From: Minisyncoccota bacterium
Lineage (GTDB): Bacteria > Patescibacteriota > Minisyncoccia > Minisyncoccales > RBG-13-42-11
NCBI GenBank assembly: GCA_016782605.1
Contig: JADHYE010000001.1
Coordinates: 11,128 to 75,127 of the forward strand
Length of the DNA stretch: 64,000 bases
Direction of reading: 5' to 3'
Position numbers and translations under genes: made by a program. Positions within the stretch are counted from its first letter, which is position 1. Each line of letters begins with the position of its first letter. Positions 51 through 63,970 of this stretch are shown one piece after another. The notes under the pieces were generated by a model. That model was not told the origin of the DNA. It was given only the letters and a program-made list of their open reading frames with translations, and searched no databases.

Positions 51-1616
51 ATGGCTGACGCTTTCTTAAAAGAAAATCTTTTAAGCAAAATAGCAGCTAT
101 TTTCCCCTTCAGCCAAAGAAAGCTCAAAGAGGCCTTAAACGAAAAAAAAGAGCAATTAACCAAAACTTCCGGCCTCTGCCTGCTGATCGCCCTGACCAAA
201 CAAACAAGCTCAAAAGAAAAAGAAATGATGGCTGGAAAGAAAAGCTTCAAAATGTTTTCTCTGGTCAAAGAGGTCTCCGTCCTCTTTTCCCGCTTCGCTT
301 CCATAGGAAACTCAGCTAAAGAAGTTTTTAATCGCCGAGCTTTTATTCGTAAAAGCGAAGGCAAAGAAGAGATTTATCTCTTCGCTCCCCTGCTCAAACT
401 GGTCAAAAAAGCAAAGCTTCCAAAGCCTTCCTTCAGAATAAAAATACCTTTCAGAAAACCGCAGATAAAAATAGCAAAACTTAAATTATCTCTGCCGAAA
501 ATAAAAGTGCCGAATTTCAGCAAAAAAATAATCCTGATTTTAGCCTTAATCGCCTTCCTGGCTTTGGGCTTCTTCATTTTCCAAAATGAAGAAGAAAATG
601 ACATCCAAGAATACCAAAAACAGCTCAACCAGATTCAAGAAAAAATACACCAGGCAGAATCGTATCTGATTATCGCTGATTTCAATCCGCAGGCCAAAGA
701 AAACGCCAATAACATATATAAAGAGATCTGGGACGAGCTTTCCTCCCTGGAAAATATTTCATTGAATTTGCCCAAAACTGTCGCCAGCCAAGTCCAAGTT
801 TTAAGAAACACGGTTTCAGAAGATCTTTCTAAGTTGAACAATTTCGTACAAATACCAAAGCCAGAAGAAGTTTTTAAGTTTGAAGCGAAAACATTCATTC
901 CCCAGAAAATGATTTCATTTAACAATGAAATATATTGTTTCAGCTCTTTATCGAAAAACATACTTAAAATAAACCAGGAAAACAAAGACGAAATCCTGCA
1001 AATCAACGAGAAAATAAAATCAGCAACCCTGCTCTCAGATTCAATACTTTTTTTCTCAAAACCGAACAAACTAATTAATCTGAAAAACAGCCAATTCAGC
1101 GAAGCAATATTCCTTAAAGAGCCTTCAAATGACTTTGACTTTAACGCTTTGTCCTCTTTTCGCTCAAGCCTTTACTTTCTGGAAACCAAAAGCAATTCGA
1201 TTATAAGGTACCCTTTCTCCCAAGATCTAAGCTGGGGGAATCCTGAAGCCTGGATTTCTCCGGAAACAAAAACTGCTGTTGAGTTCAAATCAATAGCAGT
1301 TGACGGTTCTGTTTGGATTTTAACGAAGGAAAACACGATTGAAAGGTACTACAACGGCAAACTGCAAGAGACGATAAATATACAAACTTTTCCTTTCGTA
1401 AAAAACCTTTCAAAAATATTCACTTCCAACCAGCTCCAATATTTATATATCCTGGAGCCGGAGCAAAAAAGAATAATCATCTTAAATAAATCAGGACAAA
1501 CAATCAGACAATACCAAAGCGACAAATTCGACAATCTCTTGGACTTTTCAATTTCCCAAGACGGAAAAACAATCTGGCTTTTAAATGGCTTAACGCTTTA
1601 TAAACTAAATCTCTAA
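51..1616 (+). CDS. hypothetical protein with one predicted TM helix; may start upstream of the window, as there is no in-frame stop in bases 1-50
   Basis: long ORF; hydrophobic segment IILILALIAFLALGFFIF; no family recognised; contains one in-frame copy of the GAAGAG..CTCTTC hairpin motif at about 366-383. Confidence 0.4.
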   Translation: MADAFLKENLLSKIAAIFPFSQRKLKEALNEKKEQLTKTSGLCLLIALTKQTSSKEKEMMAGKKSFKMFSLVKEVSVLFSRFASIGNSAKEVFNRRAFIRKSEGKEEIYLFAPLLKLVKKAKLPKPSFRIKIPFRKPQIKIAKLKLSLPKIKVPNFSKKIILILALIAFLALGFFIFQNEEENDIQEYQKQLNQIQEKIHQAESYLIIADFNPQAKENANNIYKEIWDELSSLENISLNLPKTVASQVQVLRNTVSEDLSKLNNFVQIPKPEEVFKFEAKTFIPQKMISFNNEIYCFSSLSKNILKINQENKDEILQINEKIKSATLLSDSILFFSKPNKLINLKNSQFSEAIFLKEPSNDFDFNALSSFRSSLYFLETKSNSIIRYPFSQDLSWGNPEAWISPETKTAVEFKSIAVDGSVWILTKENTIERYYNGKLQETINIQTFPFVKNLSKIFTSNQLQYLYILEPEQKRIIILNKSGQTIRQYQSDKFDNLLDFSISQDGKTIWLLNGLTLYKLNL

Positions 1617-3002: not shown

Positions 3003-3012
3003 ATTATTTGTC

Positions 3013-3047
3013 GATGAAGTTTCCCCCTTCGGGGTTTGCCTTCATCT
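3013..3047 (-). promoter_or_regulatory. stable GC-rich stem-loop in the rplJ-rplL spacer
   Basis: GATGAAGG..CCCCGAAGGGGG..CTTCATC nested hairpin with no U-tract; candidate processing or stability element. Confidence 0.4.
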
Positions 3048-3074
3048 TCACTTTCGTTTTTGCTCTGCAAAAAC

Positions 3075-3587
3075 TTAGTTTTTAATTATAGTTAATAAAT
3101 ATACCAGACCTTTAAGATTATATTGCAAAGAATATACAAGGTTTGAAACCGGAGCAGAAATGCTGCCCACCAGTTTTGCCAGAAGCTCTGGCTTTGTCGG
3201 AAGCTGAGCCAAAGCAATTATGTCCTCTTTATCTTTAAATGATCCTTCAACAAATCCGCCCAAAATCTTCAAATTCTCATTAGCCAACCCTGACTGATAA
3301 ACTGTTTTTGCCGGCATTATTTCGTCTTCAAATCCGAAAACCAAACCTATTTCCTCTTTGTATTTGTTCTTGTTAAAATCCAGCTTCTTTTCCTTTAAAG
3401 CTTTTTCTATCAATGTTTTCTTAGCTACCTGCAAATTACCTCCAATCTCTTTCAGTTTCTTCCTTAAATCAGACATATCTTTCACTTTTAAACCGGCAAT
3501 GCTAATAAAAATCATTGCTTTCTGCTTGGCAATTTTATCTTTCAAATCTTCAAGTATTTTTTGTTTTTGCAGTTTGGTTTGAGCCAT
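3075..3587 (-). CDS. rplJ: 50S ribosomal protein L10
   Basis: 170 aa; position immediately upstream of rplL; L10-like sequence. Confidence 0.85.
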   Translation of the reverse strand: MAQTKLQKQKILEDLKDKIAKQKAMIFISIAGLKVKDMSDLRKKLKEIGGNLQVAKKTLIEKALKEKKLDFNKNKYKEEIGLVFGFEDEIMPAKTVYQSGLANENLKILGGFVEGSFKDKEDIIALAQLPTKPELLAKLVGSISAPVSNLVYSLQYNLKGLVYLLTIIKN

Positions 3588-3850
3588 AGTGGTAATACTT
3601 AATTAATCGCGGCACGCGTCGCTTACGCTCCGCTAACACCGCTCTTTAGAAGACGAACGCAGTGAGGCGGGAAAAGAGATTTATCTCTTTGACCACTCTC
3701 GGTGCTCAATGAAGCTAAAGCTTCATTCCCCTTTCCGACATGGAATGGTTCTACTGAAACAAAAATGTCTGCTTTCCGCAGACAAAAATCAAGAAAAACT
3801 TAAAACTTTTCCTCGGCGGGTCTTATGGACGCCCACTGTCTGCGGATAAT
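3588..3850 (-). promoter_or_regulatory. long structured rplJ 5' leader with mutually exclusive terminator and antiterminator pairings
   Basis: On the gene strand, GTCTGCGGAAAGCAGAC followed by a U-run (plus coordinates 3761-3783) competes with pairing of CCGCAGACA (3837-3845) to TGTCTGCGG (3776-3784). An approximately 89-nt module (3639-3727) is near-identical to the rplK leader. Confidence 0.5.
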
Positions 3851-3852
3851 AC

Positions 3853-3882
3853 TAATTTATTATATATCCAGAATCTTGTCAA
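3853..3882 (-). promoter_or_regulatory. sigma70-like promoter for rplJ-rplL
   Basis: TTGACA (plus 3877-3882, minus strand), 16-17 bp spacer, then ATAAAT/TAAATT. Confidence 0.45.
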
Positions 3883-3992: not shown

Positions 3993-5033
3993 TTATTTGA
4001 AATACTTTACCTTAGCCGTATTGTGTTCGTCCAAGGTTTTGCTAAAAATAGTTTCTCCTTCCCTGGTGGAAAGATAATACCAGTAATCGCTATCTTGAAG
4101 ATAAACAGCAGCGATAATGCTTTCAAGTCCAGGATTACAAATCGGACCCAAGGGAAGCCCTTTGTATTTGTAAGTATTGTAGGGAGAATCAATTTCTGTA
4201 CCAGAAGCGATCTCTGATCTCATTTCGTCAAACGTCCAGTTTTCTTTTCCTAAGATATAAGCAATGGTGGCGCAGCTGCGCAAGGGTTCGCTATTCTCAA
4301 TCTTTCCCCAGAAAATGCCAGAAACTATTTTTTTGTCCTCCAAAGTTATTACTTCCTTCTCAAGAATACTAGCCATGGTCACTATTTCAAAAATAGTTTT
4401 GCCTTGTTTCTTAATTTCCTCTCTTAATTCAGAATTCAATTTCTTATCGAAATTAATAAGCATTTTTTCAACAACGCTTTCCATGCTTTCTTTGCTGGTT
4501 TTCTCGTAAGTATCGGGAAAAAGATATCCTTCCAGACTTAAATTCTCAGGCTTATCTCTAAGAAAAGCAAAATCAGCAGAAAAATCTTTTGAAGAAGAAC
4601 CGGTTATCGGAGAACCGACCAATCCAAAAAAATCATCAGCCCCAAATAAACCTTTGCTTTCAAAATAAGAAGCGATATCCCTTAAACTCCATCCTTCAAT
4701 AATAGTGATCTTTTCCTTTATGACATTGCCGGAAAAAAGCTTGTCAGCAATCTGAGGCATATTCATTGAAGGAGACAAAATATATTCTCCTGCTTTTAAA
4801 TAAGAAGCCATTCCCACAGTCAAAACATAAACCCGGAAAACAGGAGACCACCTTATCAATCCCTGATTTTCCAAATTCAAGCCGATGTCCCTTGAACCCT
4901 GACCCTTTTCCACGCTGAAAATAACTTCTTTTTCAGAATTCTGTTCTACGGGCAAAATAACCAGCCAGGAAGCAATCAGAACAATAATAACGACAATAAT
5001 TAAAATTAAAGATTTTTTCACCCCGTATATCAA
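3993..5033 (-). CDS. mltG: endolytic murein transglycosylase MltG (YceG family)
   Basis: 346 aa; N-terminal TM segment; YceG-like sequence. The called TTG start and first four codons (MIYG) lie inside the adjacent repeat element. The true start may be the GTG spanning 5019-5021. Confidence 0.75.
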   Translation of the reverse strand: MIYGVKKSLILIIVVIIVLIASWLVILPVEQNSEKEVIFSVEKGQGSRDIGLNLENQGLIRWSPVFRVYVLTVGMASYLKAGEYILSPSMNMPQIADKLFSGNVIKEKITIIEGWSLRDIASYFESKGLFGADDFFGLVGSPITGSSSKDFSADFAFLRDKPENLSLEGYLFPDTYEKTSKESMESVVEKMLINFDKKLNSELREEIKKQGKTIFEIVTMASILEKEVITLEDKKIVSGIFWGKIENSEPLRSCATIAYILGKENWTFDEMRSEIASGTEIDSPYNTYKYKGLPLGPICNPGLESIIAAVYLQDSDYWYYLSTREGETIFSKTLDEHNTAKVKYFK

Positions 5034-5153: not shown

Positions 5154-5789
5154 TCATTTTTTCAATAAAGGAACGAAAATAAACCCTGGATGTTCTTTTT
5201 CTTCAAAATCAGTTTCGTTCTTTTTAATTAAAAGCCAGATTGAAGAATCAACCGGAGCAACAATCCTGCCTCCGATTTTCAGCTGCTTTTTCCAAGAATC
5301 GGGAATATTAACAGCACTAGCAGATGCTAAAATCTTGTCAAACCCTTCGACAAACTCAGGGTGAGAGGAGATATTGGGATAACCGTTGTTTCCGTCAAGA
5401 CAGAAAAACTGAACAATCCCCTTTTTAACGAAATTATATTTTGAAACGTTTTTCTCGCCAAAGTCCTTCAATTCCTGGATTATATCAAGGGAAATAACCT
5501 TTCCTTTTTTACCGACAATTTCAGCTAACAAAGCGCTGGTCCAGCCAGAGCCTGAACCAACATCCAAAACCTTATCCCCTTCATGCAAATCCAGCAATTC
5601 CATCATAAAAGCAACAACCAAAGGCTGAGAAATGGTCTGGCCGAATCCTATAGGCAAAGCCTCGTTGATCTCTGCTAAATTCTTTGAGTCTTCCGGCAAA
5701 AAATCGCTTCTCTTTATTTTTTTAAAAGCTTCTATCACTTTCGGCGTTTTCAGCCAGTTATCTTTAATTAGCTCTTCAATAAGCGGCAT
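5154..5789 (-). CDS. pcm: protein-L-isoaspartate O-methyltransferase
   Basis: 211 aa; SAM-binding motif LDVGSGSGW. Confidence 0.85.
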   Translation of the reverse strand: MPLIEELIKDNWLKTPKVIEAFKKIKRSDFLPEDSKNLAEINEALPIGFGQTISQPLVVAFMMELLDLHEGDKVLDVGSGSGWTSALLAEIVGKKGKVISLDIIQELKDFGEKNVSKYNFVKKGIVQFFCLDGNNGYPNISSHPEFVEGFDKILASASAVNIPDSWKKQLKIGGRIVAPVDSSIWLLIKKNETDFEEKEHPGFIFVPLLKK

Positions 5790-5790
5790 A

Positions 5791-5860
5791 CTAGGTAGTA
5801 GAAATTCGACAAATTTATTTTTCTTTGCTGCCAGGCAGCAGTCGAATTTTCACTACCTGG
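5791..5860 (+). mobile_element. Family-2 miniature inverted-repeat element, copy A (flanked by CATA repeats)
   Basis: ctaggtagtagaaattcgac ... gtcgaattttcactacctgg inverted-repeat ends; its left end abuts the pcm ATG and the element overlaps the last approximately 15 codons and the stop of def. Confidence 0.75.
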
Positions 5861-6312
5861 CATAGTTTTTGTGGTAAACTCATTTTATCAATAAATAGTA
5901 TTCCGTCCAAGTGGTCAATCTCGTGCTGGAAAACCCTGGCTGACAATCCATCAACTTTCATTTTGATTTTTTCCCCCTGCAGATTAAGAAACTCCAGTTC
6001 CACTTCCTTAGCTCTTTTAATCTTTAAAAACAAACCAGGAAAACTCAAGCATCCCTCTTCCATGACTTCTGTCTTTCTGCTTTTCCGCACGATCTTTGGA
6101 TTTATGAAAACTTGCGACTTTCCTTCAAAAAAAGCAGCGATTATGCTTTTTGATTCGCCGATCTGAGAAGCAGCCAATCCAATGCCGTCTTTTTCCATCA
6201 TTATCTTTTTCATTTCTTCGGCCAATATCTTCACCTCCTCGGTTATCTCCTTGATCGCAGAAGATTTCTTTCTCAGTATTGGATTTGGATATTCTAATAT
6301 TTGCTTACTCAT
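5815..6312 (-). CDS. def: peptide deformylase
   Basis: 165 aa; motifs EGCLSFPG and HEIDHLDG; the C-terminal approximately 15 codons are encoded by the Family-2 element. Confidence 0.9.
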   Translation of the reverse strand: MSKQILEYPNPILRKKSSAIKEITEEVKILAEEMKKIMMEKDGIGLAASQIGESKSIIAAFFEGKSQVFINPKIVRKSRKTEVMEEGCLSFPGLFLKIKRAKEVELEFLNLQGEKIKMKVDGLSARVFQHEIDHLDGILFIDKMSLPQKLCQVVKIRLLPGSKEK

Positions 6313-10847: not shown

Positions 10848-10915
10848 ATTGCTTATTTGCTTGCCGAGCTGCAGCAAGATAGAAGAAGAGATTTATCTCT
10901 TCGCTTCTTTGTGAA
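10848..10915 (+). repeat. Family-3 hairpin-pair element (GCTGCAGC palindrome plus GAAGAAGAGAT-TT-ATCTCTTCGC hairpin) abutting the start codon
   Basis: same two-hairpin layout as the 15138-15270 and 56365-56433 copies. Confidence 0.55.
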
Positions 10916-13348: not shown

Positions 13349-13480
13349 CCCTGTATATCAACATCCAGGCATTTTCAATGCGAAAACACCCTGAAGATTG
13401 TCTTTATTTAATAATATATTTAACATAATAACTTTGTTTGAGATTTTAATACGAAGTATTCTGGATGTTGTATTACGGGG
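13349..13480 (+). mobile_element. Family-1 element, copy 2 (flanked by CATA repeats)
   Basis: ccctgtatatcaacatccag ... ctggatgttgtattacgggg; abuts the trmD ATG. Confidence 0.85.
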
Positions 13481-14447: not shown

Positions 14448-15137
14448 TTACCAATGTTTGACTGCTAAAGCGTTTTTCGCTGCCTCAACTTCTGCTTCTT
14501 GTTTTGAAGATCCTTTGCCTTCGGCCACTAAATCCTTATCAAGGAAAACGCCGATAACGAAATTCTTTGCGTGATCCGGCCCGTGTTCTTTCAAAACTTT
14601 ATAGGTCGGAGTAATGCCCACTCTTTCTTGGGCTGCTTCCTGGAAAGTGGATTTAGCATCCCTGAAAAGACCTTTCTCAATGATTTCCGGCAATTTAACG
14701 ATTAAATTCTTTTTAATGAATTTTTCGCATGCTTTATAGCCTGAATCAAGGTAAGCTGAACCGATAAACGCTTCAAAAGTGTTGGCCAGGATATAATCCC
14801 TTGATTTGCCTGTTTCTTTCATTTCTCCTTTTGAAAGAAGCAAAAAATCATTAAAGCCCAATTCCTTAGCAACCTCAGCAAGCATTTTAGCATTAACCAG
14901 AGAAGCGCGCCAGTTGGTCAATTCGCCTTCCGGCTTTTTGGGATATTTGACAAAAAGGTGTTCGGTAATAATAAGTTCCAAAACCGCATCTCCCAAAAAT
15001 TCCAGTCTTTCATTGTTATCCAGATTGGCTTTCGGATTCTCGTTCAGATAGGAGCGATGGCAAAAAGCCTGAATCAATAAATCCTTGTTTTTGAATTTAA
15101 AATTTAATTGCTTTTCCAATATTGAAAAATCATTCAT
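14448..15137 (-). CDS. rnc: ribonuclease III
   Basis: 229 aa; catalytic signature ERLEFLGDAVLEL; C-terminal dsRBD. Confidence 0.9.
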   Translation of the reverse strand: MNDFSILEKQLNFKFKNKDLLIQAFCHRSYLNENPKANLDNNERLEFLGDAVLELIITEHLFVKYPKKPEGELTNWRASLVNAKMLAEVAKELGFNDFLLLSKGEMKETGKSRDYILANTFEAFIGSAYLDSGYKACEKFIKKNLIVKLPEIIEKGLFRDAKSTFQEAAQERVGITPTYKVLKEHGPDHAKNFVIGVFLDKDLVAEGKGSSKQEAEVEAAKNALAVKHW

Positions 15138-15270
15138 ATACCGAGTCCGCCCAAGGCGGGCGAAGGTGAAGAAGAGGTTTACCTCTTCGACTTACTTTTC
15201 TAATACCGAGTCCGCCCAAGGCGGGCGAAGGTGAAGAAGAGGTTTACCTCTTCGACTTACTTTTCTAATT
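15138..15270 (+). repeat. Family-3 hairpin-pair element present as a perfect 2 x 65-bp tandem duplication filling the nusB-rnc spacer
   Basis: The unit ccgagtccgcccaaggcgggcgaaggtgaagaagaggtttacctcttcgacttacttttctaata occurs twice with 100% identity (15141-15205 and 15206-15270). It starts right after the rnc ATG, and the last four codons and stop of nusB lie in the second unit. Confidence 0.85.
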
Positions 15271-15676
15271 CTTTATAAACGGTCCCCAAAACGCCATTGA
15301 TAAACCTGCCAGAACTCTCTCCGCCAAAAGATTTAGCCAGCTCAATGGCTTCGTTAATAGCCACTTTTGGAGGAACCTCTTCTTTATTAGAATACAGTAA
15401 TTCAAAAAGTCCCATCCTCAGAATATTCCTGTCAACAACCGTTATCTGGCTTATCGGCCATTCAGGGGCTGCCTGTTCAATAATCTTATCCAGCTTTGAA
15501 AGGTGCTTAACTACTCCGGTAATTATCTGCCAGACCAGGCTTAAGTCCTCCAAACCAGGACCGAACTCTTTGATGTTCTTTTCAACTATCTTTTCCAAAT
15601 CATTTTTCCTGCCGCTAAAATCCCACTCGTAAAGAGACTGCATAGCAATACTTCTTGATAAATGACGACTAGCCAT
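15257..15676 (-). CDS. nusB: transcription antitermination factor NusB
   Basis: 139 aa; NusB-like helical protein. Confidence 0.85.
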
Positions 15677-19600: not shown

Positions 19601-19905
19601 TGGTTTCCATAGCCAAGCTTTCAGGCAATGGCTTAAGAAGAAACGCCAGAGTCAAAATTGGAGGCATTATTTCGAATATTAAAAAAATAATAACCAGGAC
19701 GGGCAAACCAATGCTTTTTGTAAACGTGGAAGATTTAAGCAGCAAAATGGAAGTGATCGTCTTTCCGAACATAATCGCTAGAAACCCGTCAATTTTCCAG
19801 GAAAATAAGATTGTCATGGTTTCAGGCAGACTTGATTCAAAAGATGGCATCCAAAAAATAATCTGCGAAGAAATCGAAGAGATATTAGATATAAAAGAAA
19901 ATTAA
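16657..19905 (+). CDS. dnaE: DNA polymerase III alpha subunit
   Basis: 1082 aa; PHP domain HVHSHYSLLDG; polymerase core motifs. Confidence 0.9.
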   Translation: MKFTQHHFPKEKSIPQEKATKSGAVFTHLHVHSHYSLLDGLPKIDQLLDYVKELGMDSVAITDHGNIYAAVEFYKKAKEKGIKPIIGCEMYTALEKMADKRPNIDDKRHHLVLLVKNEKGYKNLVKLITKAHLDGFYYKPRIDDELLSQYSEGLIGLSACLAGKIPKLILAKKMEEAEKVAKNYQKIFGKDNFYLDIQHHPNSADQKTANKGLIELSKKTGIPLVATNDVHYLRPEDSDAQDILMLINTGSDPNDPERLSLKMDDFSMRSPEQMAKDFKDLPEAIENTQKIADLCNFQFELDKVKLPQFAVPTGEDPNTYIEKLCQKGLTSKFGEKPEKEVIERMNYELSVIKQTGFTSYFLIVQDFVNWAKENRIVVGPGRGSVGGSLVAYLLNITNIDPLKYDLLFERFLNPERISMPDIDLDFTDRRRDEVIQYVSQKYGRDKVAQIITFGTMAARAVVRDVGRAMGQPYSFCDQIAKMIPFGMTLDETMKKVSEFSSLYESDQEARKLIDAAKKLEGVARHASTHACGVVISNTPLDEIVPLQHPTQNDQNIVTQYEMHSIEDLGILKMDFLGLKNLTIIEDTLSRIYVIHGTNLNIEKIPTDDKKTYKLFQTGGTVGVFQLESDGMRRYLKQLKPTEFEDIIAMVALYRPGPMQLIPDYISRKNKKQKIEYFHPKLKPILEKTYGIAVYQEQIMRIAKDMAGFTLAEADVLRKAIGKKIKELLMSQKEKFIAGMKKNEISENIAQQIWYWIEPFASYSFNRSHAAAYATIAYQTAYLKTHFPAEFMSSLLTSERNDIERIAVLIEECKKMGLTVLPPDINESFTFFSVVPKKNQIRFGLSAIKNVGSNIVEVVVNERKANGPFISIDDFLTRTSSRDLNKKSLESLIKTGVFDKMAERNQMLSNIEKILEYARESQKTKTNGQTGLFDGMSFNNHIHLPDTTPASEKERLTWEKELLGLFISSHPLNGFEKLLEKKVVSIAKLSGNGLRRNARVKIGGIISNIKKIITRTGKPMLFVNVEDLSSKMEVIVFPNIIARNPSIFQENKIVMVSGRLDSKDGIQKIICEEIEEILDIKEN

Positions 19906-19976
19906 TATATCTCTTCTCCGCCTTCATTCCGTTACCGCGGAACTTGGCAATAGAAGAAATCGTTGAATCATAATAT

Positions 19977-33575: not shown

Positions 33576-34031
33576 AGTGGTAATACCTAATTAAGTCGCG
33601 GCTCGCGCATATTATATATTAATATATTGCCTTCGGCGAATGTGCTACTGCCGCTCTTTAGAAGACGAACGCAGTGAGGCGGGAAAAAAGATTTATCTCT
33701 TTGACCACTCTCGGTGCTCAATGAAGCTAAAGCTTCATTTCGGTCTGCGCTTCCGTGAACGGAAGCTTGCCTTCTAACGTTTTCCACCTCATCGGCGGAA
33801 ATCCTGTTTTCCTATACGGAAGAACCTGATGGTTCTTCCGACCCATCTCCGATATGGGATACTATTACGTTAATTATTAATTGTTCAAGCGAGGCAACAA
33901 GTTTTAAAGTAGCTCTCGGAAGCCTATTTGCATGGTTCGCCGGAAGCGAAAATAGGCTGAGAGCGCAACTCCCAAAATCTCGCAGGGATTTTGAGAAGCG
34001 GTACTTTCAAAACTTAGTTGCCGAGCACCCC
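33576..34031 (-). promoter_or_regulatory. 456-nt rplK leader built from modules shared with the rplJ and rpsK leaders
   Basis: 33651-33739 is near-identical to 3639-3727; 33820-33870 (GGAAGAACC..GGTTCTTCC and CCCATATCGGAGATGGG hairpins) is shared with 57721-57790; the approximately 30 nt before the ATG are shared by all three. Confidence 0.5.
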
Positions 34032-51893: not shown

Positions 51894-52192
51894 CTCGGCA
51901 CCTCCTTTCTTTATTTCTTATCTTTCGTTAATATATTAATCAAATCCTTACCTTGCAGGATATAATATGAATTCAACCTCCATCTCTCTTCTCTGCTCCT
52001 CACCATATATATCAACCCATATTGGACATAAAATGAACCACCGCTCCCCTCCTTCTACAATCACATATATTACCACGCTCTTTCCAAAATGTCAACCCCA
52101 TTAGAAGTCCGCCTTGCCGGAGGCATGGCGACAGCCACCAAGGGGGCAGCTTACTTCTAACGGAGTCAAGATTGAGGTATAATAATCATATG

Positions 52193-52264
52193 CCAGGTAG
52201 TGAAAATTCAACCACTGCCGCGGCAGTGAAAAAAATAATAATTTGTCGAATTTCTACTACCTAG
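52193..52264 (-). mobile_element. Family-2 element, copy C, inverted relative to copies A and B and abutting a plus-strand gene (flanked by TATG)
   Basis: ccaggtagtgaaaattcaac cactgccgcggcagtg ... tcgaatttctactacctag; the ATG at 52266. Confidence 0.75.
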
Positions 52265-52265
52265 T

Positions 52266-53570
52266 ATGACCAAAAAGACAAAAACAATACTGTTTTTAGC
52301 CTGCTTACTTGCATTCATCCTGTTAGCTCCCTCAATAGTCCTGTACTCCCAAGGATACAGAATTGATTTTAATCCTCCAGAAGGCGGAAAAATGATTACC
52401 CAAACCGGAGGCCTTTTTTTGAAAGTCACGCCCAAACAAACAGATATTTATATTGACGGCAAACCTAAAAAAAGAACTGATTTTCTATTCGGTTCTGTTT
52501 TAATTGAAAACCTCATTCCTGGAAAGTACAAAGTAGAAATCAAAAAATTAACCAGCCAGGAAGAATACTATCCCTGGGAGAAAAACCTGGAAATACGGGA
52601 AAAACAGGTAACTGAAGCCAAGAACGTTGTCCTTTTCCCGAAAAACGTTAATTTCAACGTCTTATCAACCAACGTAGAACAGCTTTGGCTTTCTCTGGAC
52701 CAAAAGAAACTAATCTTAAAGGAAAATGAAAAAGCCAGCTGGTCCTTAAAGCTTTACGACCCGGAAAAGAATATAAAAAGCTATTTAATAAGCGACGAGG
52801 ATTTCTTCACGAAAGAACCCCAATTAATCAATCTGAAATTCTCGGGAGACTCAAGAAGTATTAATCTGGAAGTCAGCATAAAAGAAGCAATACAATCTTT
52901 TTCTCTGCAACTTGACCAAGCAAAACCAACTTTAAATAAAAAAACAGCAGCCACAACGACAACTGGAAACGCTGCTATCTCGCAACAAGCAGGCAATGAT
53001 ATATATTATCTGGACAGTTTCGGCTATCTTTTCAGGAATAAAGAAAAGCTGGCAGAAACTCCCTTTCAAACAAAACAAGAAACAGAATATGCTTTAGATA
53101 TTTTCAACGGCAACATATTCTTAAAAGAAAACGACAAACTGTACAAATTCAATTACAATCTGAAAACATTTGAACATTTCTTTGACGGAATCAATATCTT
53201 AAAGCTTTCTCCGGACAATAAAAAACTGCTTTACGCTTCAAACAATGAAATGTGGATTCTTTTCCTGGAAGACAAAATCGACCAGCCGCAGAAAAAATCA
53301 GGAGAGAAAATCTTTTTAATCCGCTTATCAGACCAAATCACAAGCATCTCCTGGATAAACGACAATTACCTGGCTTTTCTTGCCGGCAATACCGTTAAAA
53401 TCATTGAAATAGACGACAGGGACAGAATAAACGTTATAGACATCTTTGAAACAAAAAACCTCCCTCAAGAAGGAAGCATTAATGAAATGTCCTGGAACAG
53501 GTTTGACAATAAAATCTATCTCTTGGACGAAAACGGCTATTTATATAGCTCTAACGTCCTGCTCCCGTAA
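52266..53570 (+). CDS. hypothetical secreted or anchored protein (N-terminal TM, PEGA-like segment, beta-rich C-terminal region)
   Basis: 434 aa; no family recognised. Confidence 0.4.
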   Translation: MTKKTKTILFLACLLAFILLAPSIVLYSQGYRIDFNPPEGGKMITQTGGLFLKVTPKQTDIYIDGKPKKRTDFLFGSVLIENLIPGKYKVEIKKLTSQEEYYPWEKNLEIREKQVTEAKNVVLFPKNVNFNVLSTNVEQLWLSLDQKKLILKENEKASWSLKLYDPEKNIKSYLISDEDFFTKEPQLINLKFSGDSRSINLEVSIKEAIQSFSLQLDQAKPTLNKKTAATTTTGNAAISQQAGNDIYYLDSFGYLFRNKEKLAETPFQTKQETEYALDIFNGNIFLKENDKLYKFNYNLKTFEHFFDGINILKLSPDNKKLLYASNNEMWILFLEDKIDQPQKKSGEKIFLIRLSDQITSISWINDNYLAFLAGNTVKIIEIDDRDRINVIDIFETKNLPQEGSINEMSWNRFDNKIYLLDENGYLYSSNVLLP

Positions 53571-55217: not shown

Positions 55218-55568
55218 TTATTTAACCAATTCTATTATGGCTATTTTGGCAGCATCTACTTTTCTTTGGCCAAGCTTAATAATCCTGGTATATCCTCCTT
55301 TTCTTTCTTTGAATCTCGGGGCGATCTCATCAACCAATTTCTTAACCACTTTTCCAGTAAAAAACTTTGCCAATAATCTGCGCGAAGCCAAAGTGCCGAC
55401 TTTCGCTTTGGTAATCTTTTTTTCAACGAAAGAGGAAACCTCTTTTGCCTTAGCTTCTGTTGTTTTAACTTTTTCTTTCAATATCAAAGCAGCAGCTAAA
55501 GATCTTAAAAGAGCGTTTCTTTGGTCTTTTTCCCTATTTAGTTTTTTCCCTTTTTTTCTTTTTCTCAT
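55218..55568 (-). CDS. rplQ: 50S ribosomal protein L17
   Basis: MRKRKKGKKLNREKDQRNALLRSL.. Confidence 0.85.
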   Translation of the reverse strand: MRKRKKGKKLNREKDQRNALLRSLAAALILKEKVKTTEAKAKEVSSFVEKKITKAKVGTLASRRLLAKFFTGKVVKKLVDEIAPRFKERKGGYTRIIKLGQRKVDAAKIAIIELVK

Positions 55569-56364
55569 TTTTTACTTTTTTGCTTACTGCTTTCTTTTCT
55601 TTTTTCGGCTTCTTGGCCGCTTTTTTCTTTTCTTTGTCTTCCGGTTCTACAGATGCAGCTTTCGGCTGGAAAGCTGTAGCCAGCAACGAAAAGTGGCTAA
55701 TCAAAATTTCCGAAGCCTGATAAAATGCCTGTTCCGGATCGATAATGCCGTCTGTTTCAATTTCCAGAAACAATCTGTCAAAGTCAGTTCTTTCTCCGAC
55801 ACGCATATTCTCAACCCTGGAACTTACCCTTTTTACAGGAGTAAAGCTGGCATCCAGCAGAATAGCTCCTATCTCTAATTTTTCAGGCATGGAGCCTGCT
55901 GTTTTTTTCCTTGTTTCGCGGCTGGAATAGCCAATTCCCTTTTCAATCTGGATTTCCATTTCCAGTTCAGCGGATTTTGAATTCAAAGTGGCAATATGGC
56001 AGTTTTTATTTACCAATTCCACTTGGCTGGGCAGCTTGAAATCAAAGCCCTTCACTGCTTTTTCTCCCTTAACTTTCAGGGTCGCTTTCTGTGGCTCGTC
56101 GCTAAAAAGCTTAAATCTCAATTGCTTCAAATTAAGCATTATAGTGATAACGTCTTCTAAAACTCCTGAAATCGTTGAGAACTCATGGGAAACTCCCTTG
56201 ATTTTGACTTGGGTAATAGCAGCTCCTTCAAGCGAAGAAAGCAAAACCCTTCTCAAAGAATTGCCGACGGTTACTCCGTAGCCAGGACGCAAAGCTTCTA
56301 TTTCAAAAACAGCTTTGTTCCCTTCTTTTTTAACTATTTTGGGAGCGTGAGGTAAATTAATCAT
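55534..56364 (-). CDS. rpoA: RNA polymerase alpha subunit (N-terminal domain plus lysine-rich tail; no recognisable alpha-CTD)
   Basis: 276 aa; alpha-NTD motifs; C-terminal KEKKKAAKKPKKEKK..; overlaps rplQ by 35 nt. Confidence 0.85.
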   Translation of the reverse strand: MINLPHAPKIVKKEGNKAVFEIEALRPGYGVTVGNSLRRVLLSSLEGAAITQVKIKGVSHEFSTISGVLEDVITIMLNLKQLRFKLFSDEPQKATLKVKGEKAVKGFDFKLPSQVELVNKNCHIATLNSKSAELEMEIQIEKGIGYSSRETRKKTAGSMPEKLEIGAILLDASFTPVKRVSSRVENMRVGERTDFDRLFLEIETDGIIDPEQAFYQASEILISHFSLLATAFQPKAASVEPEDKEKKKAAKKPKKEKKAVSKKVKNEKKKKREKTK

Positions 56365-56433
56365 ATAGCGAGTCCCGCAACAACGGGACGAAGGTTAAGA
56401 AGAGGATGAATTCCTCTTCGATTTATTTTGAGT
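56365..56433 (+). repeat. Family-3 hairpin-pair element filling the rpsD-rpoA spacer
   Basis: atagcgagtcccgcaacaacgggacgaaggttaagaagaggatgaattcctcttcgatttattttgag; starts right after the rpoA ATG and contains the rpsD stop. Confidence 0.7.
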
Positions 56434-58603: not shown

Positions 58604-59905
58604 CTAATCAATGACCAGATTGAATTTAATCTTACTTAGGTCTTCTGGCACCTTATTGACCCAGAATGGCCAAAACTTGACGCTGGCCCTGGTAATCTTA
58701 GGATAGTTTTCCAAGAAGAGCTTAGCCTCGAGCAAAGACTTTCCTTTTAAGGCGTTTTTAAAGCTGAAAATGTCAACGTCAGCATAGATTTTAGCTGAAA
58801 TTGTCAAAGAAACAGCAATTTTGCCGGTCTCTAAATCAACATCGTCAATAGAATAATTTATTTTCAAACTTTCCTCATAAAGCTTTTTATCCTGGGGAAT
58901 TTGAAAAGTAATCGCTTCTTTAACGTAATTCCTAATATCTTCTTTCTTAAACACTACGACTTGGCATTGCGCTTTCACCTGATAATTAAAGTCTTTTGCT
59001 TCTGTTTCAGCAGAAGTCAAAGAAAAGTTCTCAATAATTTCTGTCTGGATGCTGTCTGGCAAATAATCGAACTTGGAAGAAATCGCTTCTGACTGCAGTT
59101 CTTTCTGCAGCAGTTCATTGCATTCTTTCTCCGCTTGTTTTGTTAAAGTTTCTTCAGCTTGAGATAAATCCTTTTCTGTCACTTTAGCAATTTCTTCATG
59201 GAAGCCGCCTGCCATTGCTTCAAAAGATTCGCCGTAGAATTTAGTATACCTGTCTGTGCCGGCAAATCCCGGTACGGAGAACTTGGTCAAAGCGATATTG
59301 TATTCTTCGCCAGGCTGATCTGCCACCACTTTTACATCTATTTCTCCTGGAACAAGCTTTCCTTTCTCATAAGTACCTCCAGGAACAGTAACTTTGATTG
59401 GCGTGCGGAATACCTTTCCGTCAGCTGAAACAAAACGGGTAGTGGCTATTAAAACCTGCTGCGAAGTTGAATAGGCATTGTACACTTTTATTGTGCCTTG
59501 CGCCTTCTCCTCTTTCATAATTTTACCGGAAGCCGGAAAAGTCTGAACAATGGTTTTTTCTTTCTGAAGCGTTTCTGCCGGAATAATCTTTAAAAGAGAA
59601 TCAATAGCTGTTGCGTTTTTGTCGATATTCGTTTCTTCTATAAGATTAAAAACTTCTGTCTCCGGCCAAACGCTTATTTCAGCTTTAGACAAAGCAATGT
59701 AGCAAAACGCTCCCAATAAAACCAAAAAAAGCAAAGAAAAAGTCAAACCCTTTTTAAAGGGTGGATTAGGAGCTTTTTTAGGAAAACCCCACAAAGGAAC
59801 CTTGGGCTTTTGCTCTAGTTCTATCTTTACTTCTGGCTCTTTGTGCTCCTCCTTTTTTTTCTCTTTTTTCGAAGGAGGGAAAACGTCTATTACTTTTTTG
59901 CTCAT
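58604..59905 (-). CDS. hypothetical protein with Lys-rich N-terminus and one TM helix
   Basis: 433 aa; no family recognised; the ATG is flush with Family-2 copy B. Confidence 0.4.
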   Translation of the reverse strand: MSKKVIDVFPPSKKEKKKEEHKEPEVKIELEQKPKVPLWGFPKKAPNPPFKKGLTFSLLFLVLLGAFCYIALSKAEISVWPETEVFNLIEETNIDKNATAIDSLLKIIPAETLQKEKTIVQTFPASGKIMKEEKAQGTIKVYNAYSTSQQVLIATTRFVSADGKVFRTPIKVTVPGGTYEKGKLVPGEIDVKVVADQPGEEYNIALTKFSVPGFAGTDRYTKFYGESFEAMAGGFHEEIAKVTEKDLSQAEETLTKQAEKECNELLQKELQSEAISSKFDYLPDSIQTEIIENFSLTSAETEAKDFNYQVKAQCQVVVFKKEDIRNYVKEAITFQIPQDKKLYEESLKINYSIDDVDLETGKIAVSLTISAKIYADVDIFSFKNALKGKSLLEAKLFLENYPKITRASVKFWPFWVNKVPEDLSKIKFNLVID

Positions 59906-59906
59906 A

Positions 59907-59979
59907 CCAGGTAGTAGAAATTCGACTAATTAAACATTATTATCACTGCCGCGGTAGTGGTCGAATTTTCACTACCTGG
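59907..59979 (+). mobile_element. Family-2 element, copy B (flanked by CATA)
   Basis: ccaggtagtagaaattcgac .. cactgccgcggtagtg .. gtcgaattttcactacctgg. Confidence 0.75.
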
Positions 59980-60006
59980 CATAATAATATTATACACTAT
60001 TTATGC

Positions 60007-63720: not shown

Positions 63721-63829
63721 TTACCAAGTTTTTATTTATAAGTTCGATGAGATGAATCTCATTTCTCGCTCAATTTATATTTATCTCTCAAACGCGAAAT
63801 GAAATAAATATTTCATTGAGCAAACGCAG

Positions 63830-63970
63830 GTGGAAAAGAAGCTTTAGCTTCTTTGACCAAGCCGAGCTTCCGAAAGAGTCAAAGAGATAAATCTCTTTTC
63901 CATCTTTGTTTTCGCTATGCGAAAACTTGATAAACGAAGATGAAGAAGAGGATTTGTCCTCTTCGCTTAC
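63830..63970 (+). repeat. two Family-3-type hairpin modules upstream of map, in plus orientation (GAAGCTTTAGCTTC, AAAGAGATAAATCTCTTT, GAAGAAGAGGATTTGTCCTCTTCGC)
   Basis: reverse-complement relatives of the rplJ/rplK leader hairpins at 3671-3727. Confidence 0.5.

Follow-up and report, generated by a model that had tools for sequence, protein, structure and literature searches.

A small folded repeat family of Candidatus Nealsonbacteria and the tandem duplication of one copy between nusB and rnc

In contig JADHYE010000001.1 of a Minisyncoccota bacterium (assembly GCA_016782605.1), the genes nusB and rnc (RNase III) are joined by two identical, hairpin-bearing units of 65 nt. The stretch analysed here, called the window below, comprises 64,000 nt of this contig (positions 11,128 to 75,127). 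The locus raises the question of what such a unit is, whether it belongs to rnc and how it came to be doubled. The unit is not specific to rnc but belongs to a family of small folded repeats that had not been described before. [quoted passage not shown]

The duplicated unit and its repeat family

Tandem Repeats Finder returned one strong array in the window, at 15138-15269, with a period of 65 nt (2.03 x 65 nt, 100% matches, no indels, score 264), which bears out the perfect twofold tandem reported in a first-pass annotation of this DNA. Both neighbouring genes lie on the minus strand, with nusB upstream (15257-15676; Pfam NusB, 1.8e-34) and rnc downstream (14448-15137; Pfam Ribonuclease_3 and dsrm), and the array ends 0-2 nt ahead of the rnc start codon. 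Each unit consists of the last 12 nt of nusB and one element. The array fills the nusB-rnc spacer as had been claimed, but it is not purely spacer, as the last codons and the stop of nusB (..TTAGAAAAGTAA) are included. On the plus strand, hairpin 1 (GTCCGCC-CAA-GGCGGGC) is followed by the linker GAAGGTGAA, hairpin 2 (GAAGAGG-TTTA-CCTCTTC) and the tail GACTTACTTTTCTA. This is the order given originally; since the genes are on the minus strand, however, hairpin 2 leads in gene orientation, in which the unit reads ..TTAGAAAAG-TAA-GTC-(GAAGAGG UAAA CCUCUUC)-UUCACCUUCG-(CCCGCC UUG GGCGG)-ACUCGGUAU and the rnc ATG follows the second unit.

By sequence reading, the variable hairpin 1 (h1; GCCCGCC-UUG-GGCGGAC on the minus strand) was located at 15145-15161 in the rnc-proximal and 15210-15226 in the second copy, and the conserved hairpin 2 (h2; GAAGAGG-UAAA-CCUCUUC) at 15171-15188 and 15236-15253, in agreement with the annotation. 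Its two-hairpin layout was incomplete, as a third, covarying helix ACC/GGU closes h1; around the rnc-proximal h1, the ACC is the complement of 15165-15167 and the GGU that of 15140-15142. A covariance model (R1) was built from 32 equal-length copies and the window was searched with filters off. It matched the two units on the minus strand at 15135-15193 (56.4 bits, E=1.6e-14) and 15200-15258 (54.2 bits). The rnc-proximal copy ends in ..CTCGGT-AT-ATG, so that the rnc start codon stands 2 nt after the element tail, and the nusB-proximal copy begins within or just past the nusB stop (TA followed by AGTCGAAG).

Across the family, the inserted DNA measures 51-57 nt and has the form G(G/T)-C-[h2 GAAGAGG..CCTCTTC]-TTCACCTTCG-[h1]-CTCGGT, and it can fold on either strand into two hairpins. 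While h2 is conserved in sequence, h1 can be any stable hairpin of 6-7 bp, closed by the 3-bp helix ACC/GGT. The constant tail CTCGGT after the variable second hairpin was recognised by inspection of 149 pattern matches. Linker and tail covary: CACC..GGT was found in 51 copies and CATC, AATC or TATC..GAT in 24, with few mixed forms, and at the decisive pair of the closing helix 109 copies have C-G and 23 have U-A.

Covariation was measured on the 150 best R1 hits (148 distinct rows). Standard pairs occupied 95.8% of the stem cells compared to 79.3% in column shuffles, none of 500 shuffles reached the observed value, and 516 cells were changed on both sides compared to 158 in the shuffles. When the 3' partner was slid by 1-3 columns, pairing was only 47-55%. 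Each of the three helices covaries, and in h1 and the 3-bp helix no pair is without compensatory changes. The compensatory changes pointed out earlier are thus confirmed; the conclusion drawn from them, that structure and not sequence is conserved, holds for h1 only, the one free part, but not for h2, the linker and several unpaired bases, which are almost invariant. The fold of single units is stable (z-scores of -2.8 to -6.1). The stems contain 40 G.U and 48 A.C cells and therefore carry no strand-specific RNA signature. Variants of h1 recur between genomes (GCTTCCTTCGGAAGC in 10 loci). Copy lengths are distributed 73/37/34 over the three residues modulo 3, and this modest excess of multiples of three fits in-frame survivors or subfamily structure and is not decisive.

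A cmscan of the whole window against Rfam (gathering threshold and E<=5) gave no match on any element copy; it returned tRNAs, a sub-threshold L10 leader and noise. The element was rejected as a coding sequence or upstream open reading frame (ORF): the frame ending at the 3' TGA or TAA is open in 60 of 98 cases, with no start codon and with a long upstream ORF in only 3. A promoter inside the element (TTCACC..TATATG) was discarded by inspection because the spacing of 22-25 nt is too long. Two further observations concern the unit itself. The motif UCACCUUC resembles the 16S 3' end, which might amount to Shine-Dalgarno (SD) or anti-SD mimicry; the window itself contains no 16S rRNA gene. In alignment A2, copies with T in linker column 53 had G as the first flank base after CTCGGT in 15 of 22 cases (mutual information 0.23, null maximum 0.14). 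This was the sole association found in a search for guide-like covariation between flanks and internal positions, and it may reflect simple linkage within subfamilies, a U.G pair that lengthens the closing helix, or contact of a guide-like kind.

For the census, a strict core pattern covering h2 and the linker (CGAAGAGR-N4-7-YCTCTTCTTNNNCTTSG) was used next to R1. The pattern matched the window five times, always on the minus strand, compared to 0.00 matches expected from shuffles, and R1 gave 13 hits at E<0.01, which correspond to at least 10 copies. When scanned against one-genome-per-species collections (genome_contigs), the pattern was found in more than 120 stretches (loci from the public scans carry L-numbers below). 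The matches listed were almost all from Patescibacteria and came from at least about 25 genomes of this group. Among them were five Candidatus Nealsonbacteria assemblies, including the complete 639,534-bp CP179888.1, metagenome-assembled genomes labelled Parcubacteria group, Patescibacteria group and 'Saccharibacteria', the single-cell genome of Ca. Paceibacter normanii and six evident chance matches in GC-rich organisms. In 772 kb of fetched Nealsonbacteria and Parcubacteria loci, R1 had 311 hits at E<1e-3; the covariance-model census that had been proposed genome-wide was thereby made for these loci. R1 hits were confined to loci with an Rnc at least about 72% identical, with none in about 40 more distant loci, and the window's RNase III shares 92% identity with a Nealsonbacteria protein. 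In viral_contigs, the core pattern had 0 matches, so that nothing points to carriage by phages. The literature searched for repeats, MITEs and palindromes yielded no account of such elements in CPR (candidate phyla radiation), Patescibacteria, Parcubacteria or Nealsonbacteria.

Empty sites, target and position of the copies

The nusB-rnc junction was compared across 80 rnc relatives. Its spacer is extremely variable and in many of them, including the closest, measures 1-10 nt without a hairpin. The three closest relatives (L127-L129, with Rnc 97, 92 and 90% identical) read TAAT-ATG or TAAC-ATG and have no element, although L127 shares about 95% DNA identity with the window over 4.5 kb. In L131 and L132 (80% Rnc identity), the same NusB C-terminus as in the window is directly followed by TAATATG, again without element. 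No link of the element to rnc was found, nor one to RNase III, for whose cleavage a check had been proposed; in the closest relatives the spacer is 1 nt.

The flanks of each copy were then joined and searched against all loci. Exact filled/empty pairs were obtained at 94-98% flank identity, in which single copies are absent from one to five relatives. In L135, an insert of 51 nt (AGTCGATGAG..CTCGAT) lies between CTAAA and AAATAATTC and is absent in five relatives; in L133, 57 nt (CAGGCGAAG..GCTCAG) between ATCAA and TTTTTAA are absent in two; and in L142, 55 nt (GGCGAAG..CTTGAT) between TAAAA and ACTTGATGA, within another copy, are absent in L141. A further copy in L133 (position 839), just ahead of CCATGAAA of dnaE, is absent in L068. 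The direction of these events would be gain and not loss. Terminal inverted repeats were not present, since the ends GGCGAAGAG.. and ..GCTCGGT are not reverse complements, and no target duplication was seen in four exact filled/empty pairs (ambiguity of at most 1 nt).

All five exact empty sites contain NNN-T-R-A at the correct offset in the host's right flank. Of the copies, 110 do not adjoin a start codon. In these, the model's last base (G of the terminal ATG) corresponds to a purine in 97%, and A follows in 92%; this following base lies outside the model, and alignment therefore cannot bias it. The base left of the insert is usually A, which leads to the target rule W-A^NNN-TRA with three intervening bases that are not conserved. 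For the window, the empty site is AAAAGTA^ATATGAAA (as in L131) and the filled one AAAAGTA[AGTCGAAG..CTCGGT]ATATGAAT, with the insertion point inside the nusB stop. Inverted copies are nested in the h1 loop in L024, L032 and L104, and head-to-tail arrays occur in L097 (4.2 x 57 nt at 100%, running into a scaffold gap) and L095 (4.1 x 48 nt at 90%).

Copies also stand in frame within genes. L067 carries an in-frame insert of 19-21 codons (..KLISK[KAKRDSLSSSTSFPQSGNS]LVDYVAM..) that its orthologues in L029 and L111 do not have, and L070 compared to L020 is similar. The window's ORF1 (51-1616) encodes a real membrane protein, to which the homologue in L091 aligns from residue 8, with gaps of 18 and 12 residues exactly at two translated copies. 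One is a diverged copy with an AAAGAGG stem at 262-322 (plus strand, sense, 33.8 bits). The other, at 329-388 (minus strand, antisense, 56.7 bits), is read in frame as ..SEGKEEIYLFAP.. and had been taken for h2 alone (366-383); it is actually a complete element. Read from its sequence, the family consensus is open in four of six frames.

Concerning the position relative to genes, 109 of the 150 best hits are intergenic by a naive ORF map and 41 lie inside naive ORFs, 23 in sense and 18 in antisense. Among 113 strict copies with a recognisable tail, ATG follows CTCGGT at exactly 2 nt in 43; ATG, GTG or TTG is at this position in 57, and 33 of these open ORFs of at least 60 codons. True N-termini adjoining copies are those of GroEL (MAKQILFNEAAR), GatC (three genomes), RpoA (two), Map, RpsD, TsaD, RsmH and MreB/DnaK-like proteins. 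A start codon opening at least 60 codons is adjoined by 40 of the 150 best hits. In 14 of the 40 an upstream stop is adjoined as well, so that the element is the whole spacer; in the remaining 26 it is not. Neighbouring genes of this genome meet in ATGA overlaps, in TAATG or in TAA-N2-7-ATG.

A mechanism that would account for these positions can be proposed. The element inserts behind an A of the host, with 3 nt between the insertion point and a host T-R-A downstream. This target is offered by compact stop-start junctions (TAA-N-ATGA), and insertion would then take place between the genes or inside the stop, 2 nt before the ATG. The 5' purine of the element would rebuild the stop codon as TAA or TAG, which would explain the TAGG/TAAG consensus at stop-adjoining copies, and both ORFs would survive. 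In a very compact genome, selection may spare mainly those copies that lie at junctions, just downstream of a promoter or in frame within coding sequence. As the ATGA is often the only T-R-A with an insertion point outside both ORFs, the target together with selection would produce the start-codon register and the orientation bias without an RNA function. Between nusB and rnc, comparison with the empty sites suggests that one copy inserted first (AAAAGTA^[AGTCG..CTCGGT]ATATGA) and that the 65-nt segment of 12 nt of the nusB 3' end plus the element was doubled in tandem very recently. An effect on rnc expression, if any, would be a side effect and not the reason for the element's presence.

Origin of the duplication and other explanations

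The junction of the two units reads GGTAT joined to TAGAAAAG and holds a 2-nt AT microhomology; AT is all that the segment borders have in common. Exact-protein look-ups with Rnc and NusB retrieved contigs with one and with two units. The two-unit array is identical in the European Nucleotide Archive contig L001/L003 (77 kb, probably the window's own source), while L002, a 2.6-kb contig of the sister sample ERZ24794672, has one unit with a 54-nt spacer in otherwise identical sequence. Since the window derives from a metagenomic SPAdes contig of a metagenome-assembled genome, the units are 100% identical and the sister assembly has a single unit, the duplication might be an assembly artefact; this is very improbable. 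A de Bruijn assembler is unable to invent a junction k-mer, and tandem arrays of the family recur in other genomes. Furthermore, the Logan contigs (k=31) of ERR13325277, ERR13325278 and SRR12042682, three independent assemblies of which one is from another study, all stop at ..AATTAGAAAAGTAAGTCGAAGAGGTAAACCT, 17 nt beyond the nusB stop and at the predicted convergence k-mer. The next 31-mer (ATTAGAAAAGTAAGTCGAAGAGGTAAACCTC) holds 12 nt of nusB, so that no other genomic copy can yield it, and a second predecessor is possible only via the junction GGT joined to ATTAGAAAAG. The break is expected if the junction is in the reads, and the two-unit form is thus very probably real and present in at least two studies. 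The one-unit version is probably real as well. The very recent origin claimed at first is supported by the identity of the units and the one-unit version in the sister sample; the duplication is probably recent and probably polymorphic, with both versions coexisting. The segment carries 12 nt of nusB, which argues for a local duplication and not for a clean second transposition, and replication slippage or unequal exchange at the hairpins on the AT microhomology would be the likely cause. The second unit could instead have been made by the element's own mobility, if a second event at that target, one-ended or with read-through, took along 12-14 nt of the nusB flank. Within the 2-nt AT ambiguity, the 3' edge of the unit is indeed the 3' edge of the element (..CTCGGT^ATATGA) and hence the same target point, an array in L112 (period of 79 nt) also carries flanking DNA, and head-to-tail arrays with the element's own period exist. 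Yet such a coincidence of edges has a chance of about 1 in 20, the left flank of the target point is T in place of the usual A, and the family has no known enzyme. Short tandem duplications commonly arise by slippage that hairpins stimulate at a microhomology, and this suffices here. We consider an event driven by the element's own mobility quite unlikely.

Several points weigh against a selfish mobile repeat as the explanation of the family. Neither a transposase nor a partner was detected by tblastn with E. coli RAYT and IS608 TnpA sequences, a weak search of 1.3 Mb of loci plus the window (best E=0.26, in ftsA). The genome_contigs loci were chosen for containing the pattern, and copy densities are therefore biased upward. 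L002 is a SPAdes contig with a k-mer coverage of 3.9 and could be a collapsed two-unit array. At the nusB-rnc junction, other lineages hold different subfamily variants: some have GAUGAG or GAUGAAG stems, one form is degenerate and AT-rich, and some copies contain a nested module of 90 nt. This needs repeated independent insertions, or old copies with repeated clean loss. Downstream genes of intergenic copies are co-oriented in 73 cases and opposed in 30. In 10 of 150 copies, a TATAAT-like hexamer begins exactly 15 nt ahead of the conserved C; this box precedes the conserved A of AGGC by about 7 nt and would put the transcription start at that A. Finally, the unpaired C5, U50, U51, U59, U60, C61 and U141 are each more than 90% conserved. 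Co-orientation, the -10-like box and the invariant unpaired bases would also fit a functional RNA leader. According to this explanation, the element is or became an RNA module of operon mRNAs, either as a folded 5' untranslated region (UTR), which the element could make up entirely where the box is present, or as intercistronic punctuation. It might couple translation by holding stop and start near each other, shield the ends of mRNAs in the manner of REP and 5' stem-loops, or mark sites for endonuclease processing, and the doubled copy would modulate rnc. The stable fold and the fixed register at ORF starts, 26 of them without an adjoining upstream stop, are in line with such a module. It nevertheless appears unlikely in view of presence and absence at the same junction among relatives about 95% identical, the many copies in antisense or inside ORFs, the lack of a G.U excess over A.C and of an Rfam match, and the 3' T-R-A, which is host sequence already in the empty sites and together with the compact junctions explains register and orientation bias. 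A narrower proposal is that the hairpins are an autoregulatory site of rnc. In E. coli, rnc has an RNase III substrate in its own leader with this role, and the hairpins here are stable and directly upstream of rnc. However, the element also stands ahead of many other genes, among them rpoA, map, groEL, gatC and rpsD, a leader of any kind is lacking in the closest rnc relatives and the stems are only 7-9 bp long, so that we consider this explanation extremely improbable.

A selfish mobile repeat with a local duplication is therefore the reading we prefer. A bolder version of it is conceivable, although we hold it with considerable doubt: the target (W-A^NNN-TRA) and the 5' purine may have evolved to fit the host's TAA-N-ATGA and the element may be moved by novel machinery, and/or junction copies may have been adopted as a standard folded 5' UTR or punctuation of Nealsonbacteria mRNAs. 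This machinery would operate with no terminal inverted repeats or target duplication, with one constant and one free hairpin and possibly with one-ended events that carry flanking DNA. If true, the fit to TAA-N-ATGA would let the element insert between translationally coupled essential genes with the stop codon rebuilt. If junction copies act in translation or mRNA processing, they would show how SD-poor, near-leaderless CPR genomes organise operon expression.

One observation at the locus concerns NusB. Its C-terminus ends in ..YKELEK in the window (15257-15290) and in ..YKNLTPVT in L127 (1340-1372), the relative with about 95% DNA identity. The window's version is also found in the more distant L131, which suggests that a recombination tract may end at the nusB-rnc junction.

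Further repeats in the window and comparison with known systems

The relatives that had been placed in other spacers and in ribosomal-protein leaders were recovered. The best R1 hit in the rest of the window (56362-56424, minus strand, 68.6 bits) exactly fills the space from the rpsD stop to the rpoA start (Pfam S4 and RpoA), where a relative had been reported. The rpoA gene (55534-56364) encodes only 276 aa with Pfam matches to the N-terminal and insert domains and no match to the alpha C-terminal domain. The relative proposed at 10848-10915 was matched at 10858-10907 (minus strand), upstream of a DUF5674 gene, but is degenerate (17.6 bits, E ~0.003). The occurrences of h2 noted at 3671 and 33685 are diverged AAAGAG variants with only 11.9 and 7 bits; they neighbour a copy of the GAUGAAG subfamily in the rplJ-rplL spacer (3008-3084, plus strand, antisense to the genes, 37.2 bits; Pfam L10 and L12) and a diverged copy in the rplK (L11) leader (33715-33776, plus strand, antisense, 27.8 bits; Pfam L11).

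Copies in both orientations upstream of map were also confirmed. A composite at 63721-63969 (minus strand) has h2 and linker at 63935-63965 and the tail CTTGGT-AA-ATG at 63721-63728 with nested modules between them, and R1 matched its 63897-63969 part with 32.2 bits. An inverted copy at 63876-63936 (plus strand, 39.1 bits) has its h1 in common with the opposed copy. The linker and the tail of the map-upstream copy are separated by a composite module of about 83 nt (TTTGCTCAATGAA..ATTGAGCGAGAAATGAGATTCATCTCATCGAAC; 63742-63824, minus strand), and the same module is found at the equivalent point of copies in L118 and L138. At the dnaE-thrS junction, a copy lies at 19871-19953 (plus strand, 31.3-42.2 bits). 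The 5' arm and loop of its h2 hold the end of the dnaE reading frame, namely the last 12 codons and the stop (..EEIEEILDIKEN), and the element thus supplies the present DnaE C-terminus.

Other repeats were observed in the window. An unrelated second family (D1) of about 131 nt has terminal inverted repeats of about 22 bp and a 5-nt target duplication GCATA (= TATGC, which holds the start codon). Unlike the two-hairpin family, it is a true MITE with both features. Its copies are at 13349-13479 and near 5017, 41787, 47110, 47808, 54737 and 57050; each of the seven carries an ORF of 41 aa and adjoins a start codon, among others those of trmD, frr, rpsI and rpsD, and the copy at trmD is absent in L127-L129. 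A third leader motif, GTCGAATTTCTACTACCTRGTATG (5787-5826, 5834-5864, 52177-52276 and 59895-59995), is sometimes doubled and always ends in a gene's start codon, on either strand. The leaders of rplJ and rplK, 30 kb apart, have a common 96-nt segment at 96% identity (3632-3727 and 33644-33739), and further repeats connect them with a third ribosomal-protein leader (3576/33564/57631 and 33807-33868/57726-57787). The L10_leader match lies at 3751-3863 (minus strand) with 40.9 bits at a threshold of 44.

CPR genomes measure about 0.6 Mb and generally count as streamlined, with little mobile DNA. In the present case, a folded repeat of 55 nt is met about every 3-5 kb, in ribosomal-protein, RNA polymerase, chaperone and RNase operons and even in ORFs, and at least one more family, the 131-nt element with terminal inverted repeats, also targets start codons. 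The family offers a defined and testable target rule as well as a natural series of zero, one and two copies upstream of an essential gene, and the element can be used as a strain-typing marker. It also poses a practical problem, as it breaks short-k assemblies and may be read through by gene callers. The annotated length of some Rnc homologues is 238-250 aa compared to 229 (P0022, P0029, P0080, P0116 and others), which would fit gene callers reading in frame through the upstream element.

Among known systems, REP and bacterial interspersed mosaic elements (BIME) are high-copy hairpin repeats between co-transcribed genes that form mosaic clusters in both orientations, are sometimes intragenic and make no target duplication; a REP is defined as a single imperfect palindrome of 20-40 bp with an unpaired GTAG or CGTC tag at one end (PMC3733652). 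REP and REPIN are mobilised by RAYT, a Y1 HUH transposase whose gene they flank. The present family likewise forms hairpin repeats between co-transcribed genes and mosaics in both orientations, but it has two hairpins and a closing helix, and the bases 5' of h2 are (A)GG-C or GT-C with no conserved GTAG or CGTC. Correia, ERIC, BOX, RUP and SPRITE elements are non-autonomous, abundant, transcribed with their neighbours and nested; the internal module of BOX is multiplied, and Correia hairpins are RNase III substrates (PMC10969869). The family resembles such classical MITEs in being non-autonomous and abundant and in the nesting of its copies. MITEs measure 100-200 bp, however, and have terminal inverted repeats and target duplications (TA for Correia), of which the family has neither.

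IS200/IS605 elements have a target of 4-5 nt directly at their left end, and TnpA recognises both of their hairpins. The IS200/IS605-derived PATE are comparable in that they have no terminal inverted repeats or target duplication, carry hairpins near both ends, insert in a specific orientation beside a short host motif and can fold as a single strand on either strand. They differ in that the host triplet of the present family lies 3 nt from the CTCGGT end and one hairpin is freely variable. The closest known system in behaviour is RPE, short palindromic repeats of a reduced genome which are inserted between genes and in frame within them and whose mobilising enzyme is unknown (PMC10969869). 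Both are short palindromes of reduced genomes with intergenic and in-frame genic insertions that keep genes open. By description, RPE measure about 100-150 bp and are limited to Rickettsia, whereas the present elements comprise 51-57 nt, belong to Patescibacteria and combine one conserved and one free hairpin with the target W-A^NNN-TRA and a strong preference for stop/start junctions.

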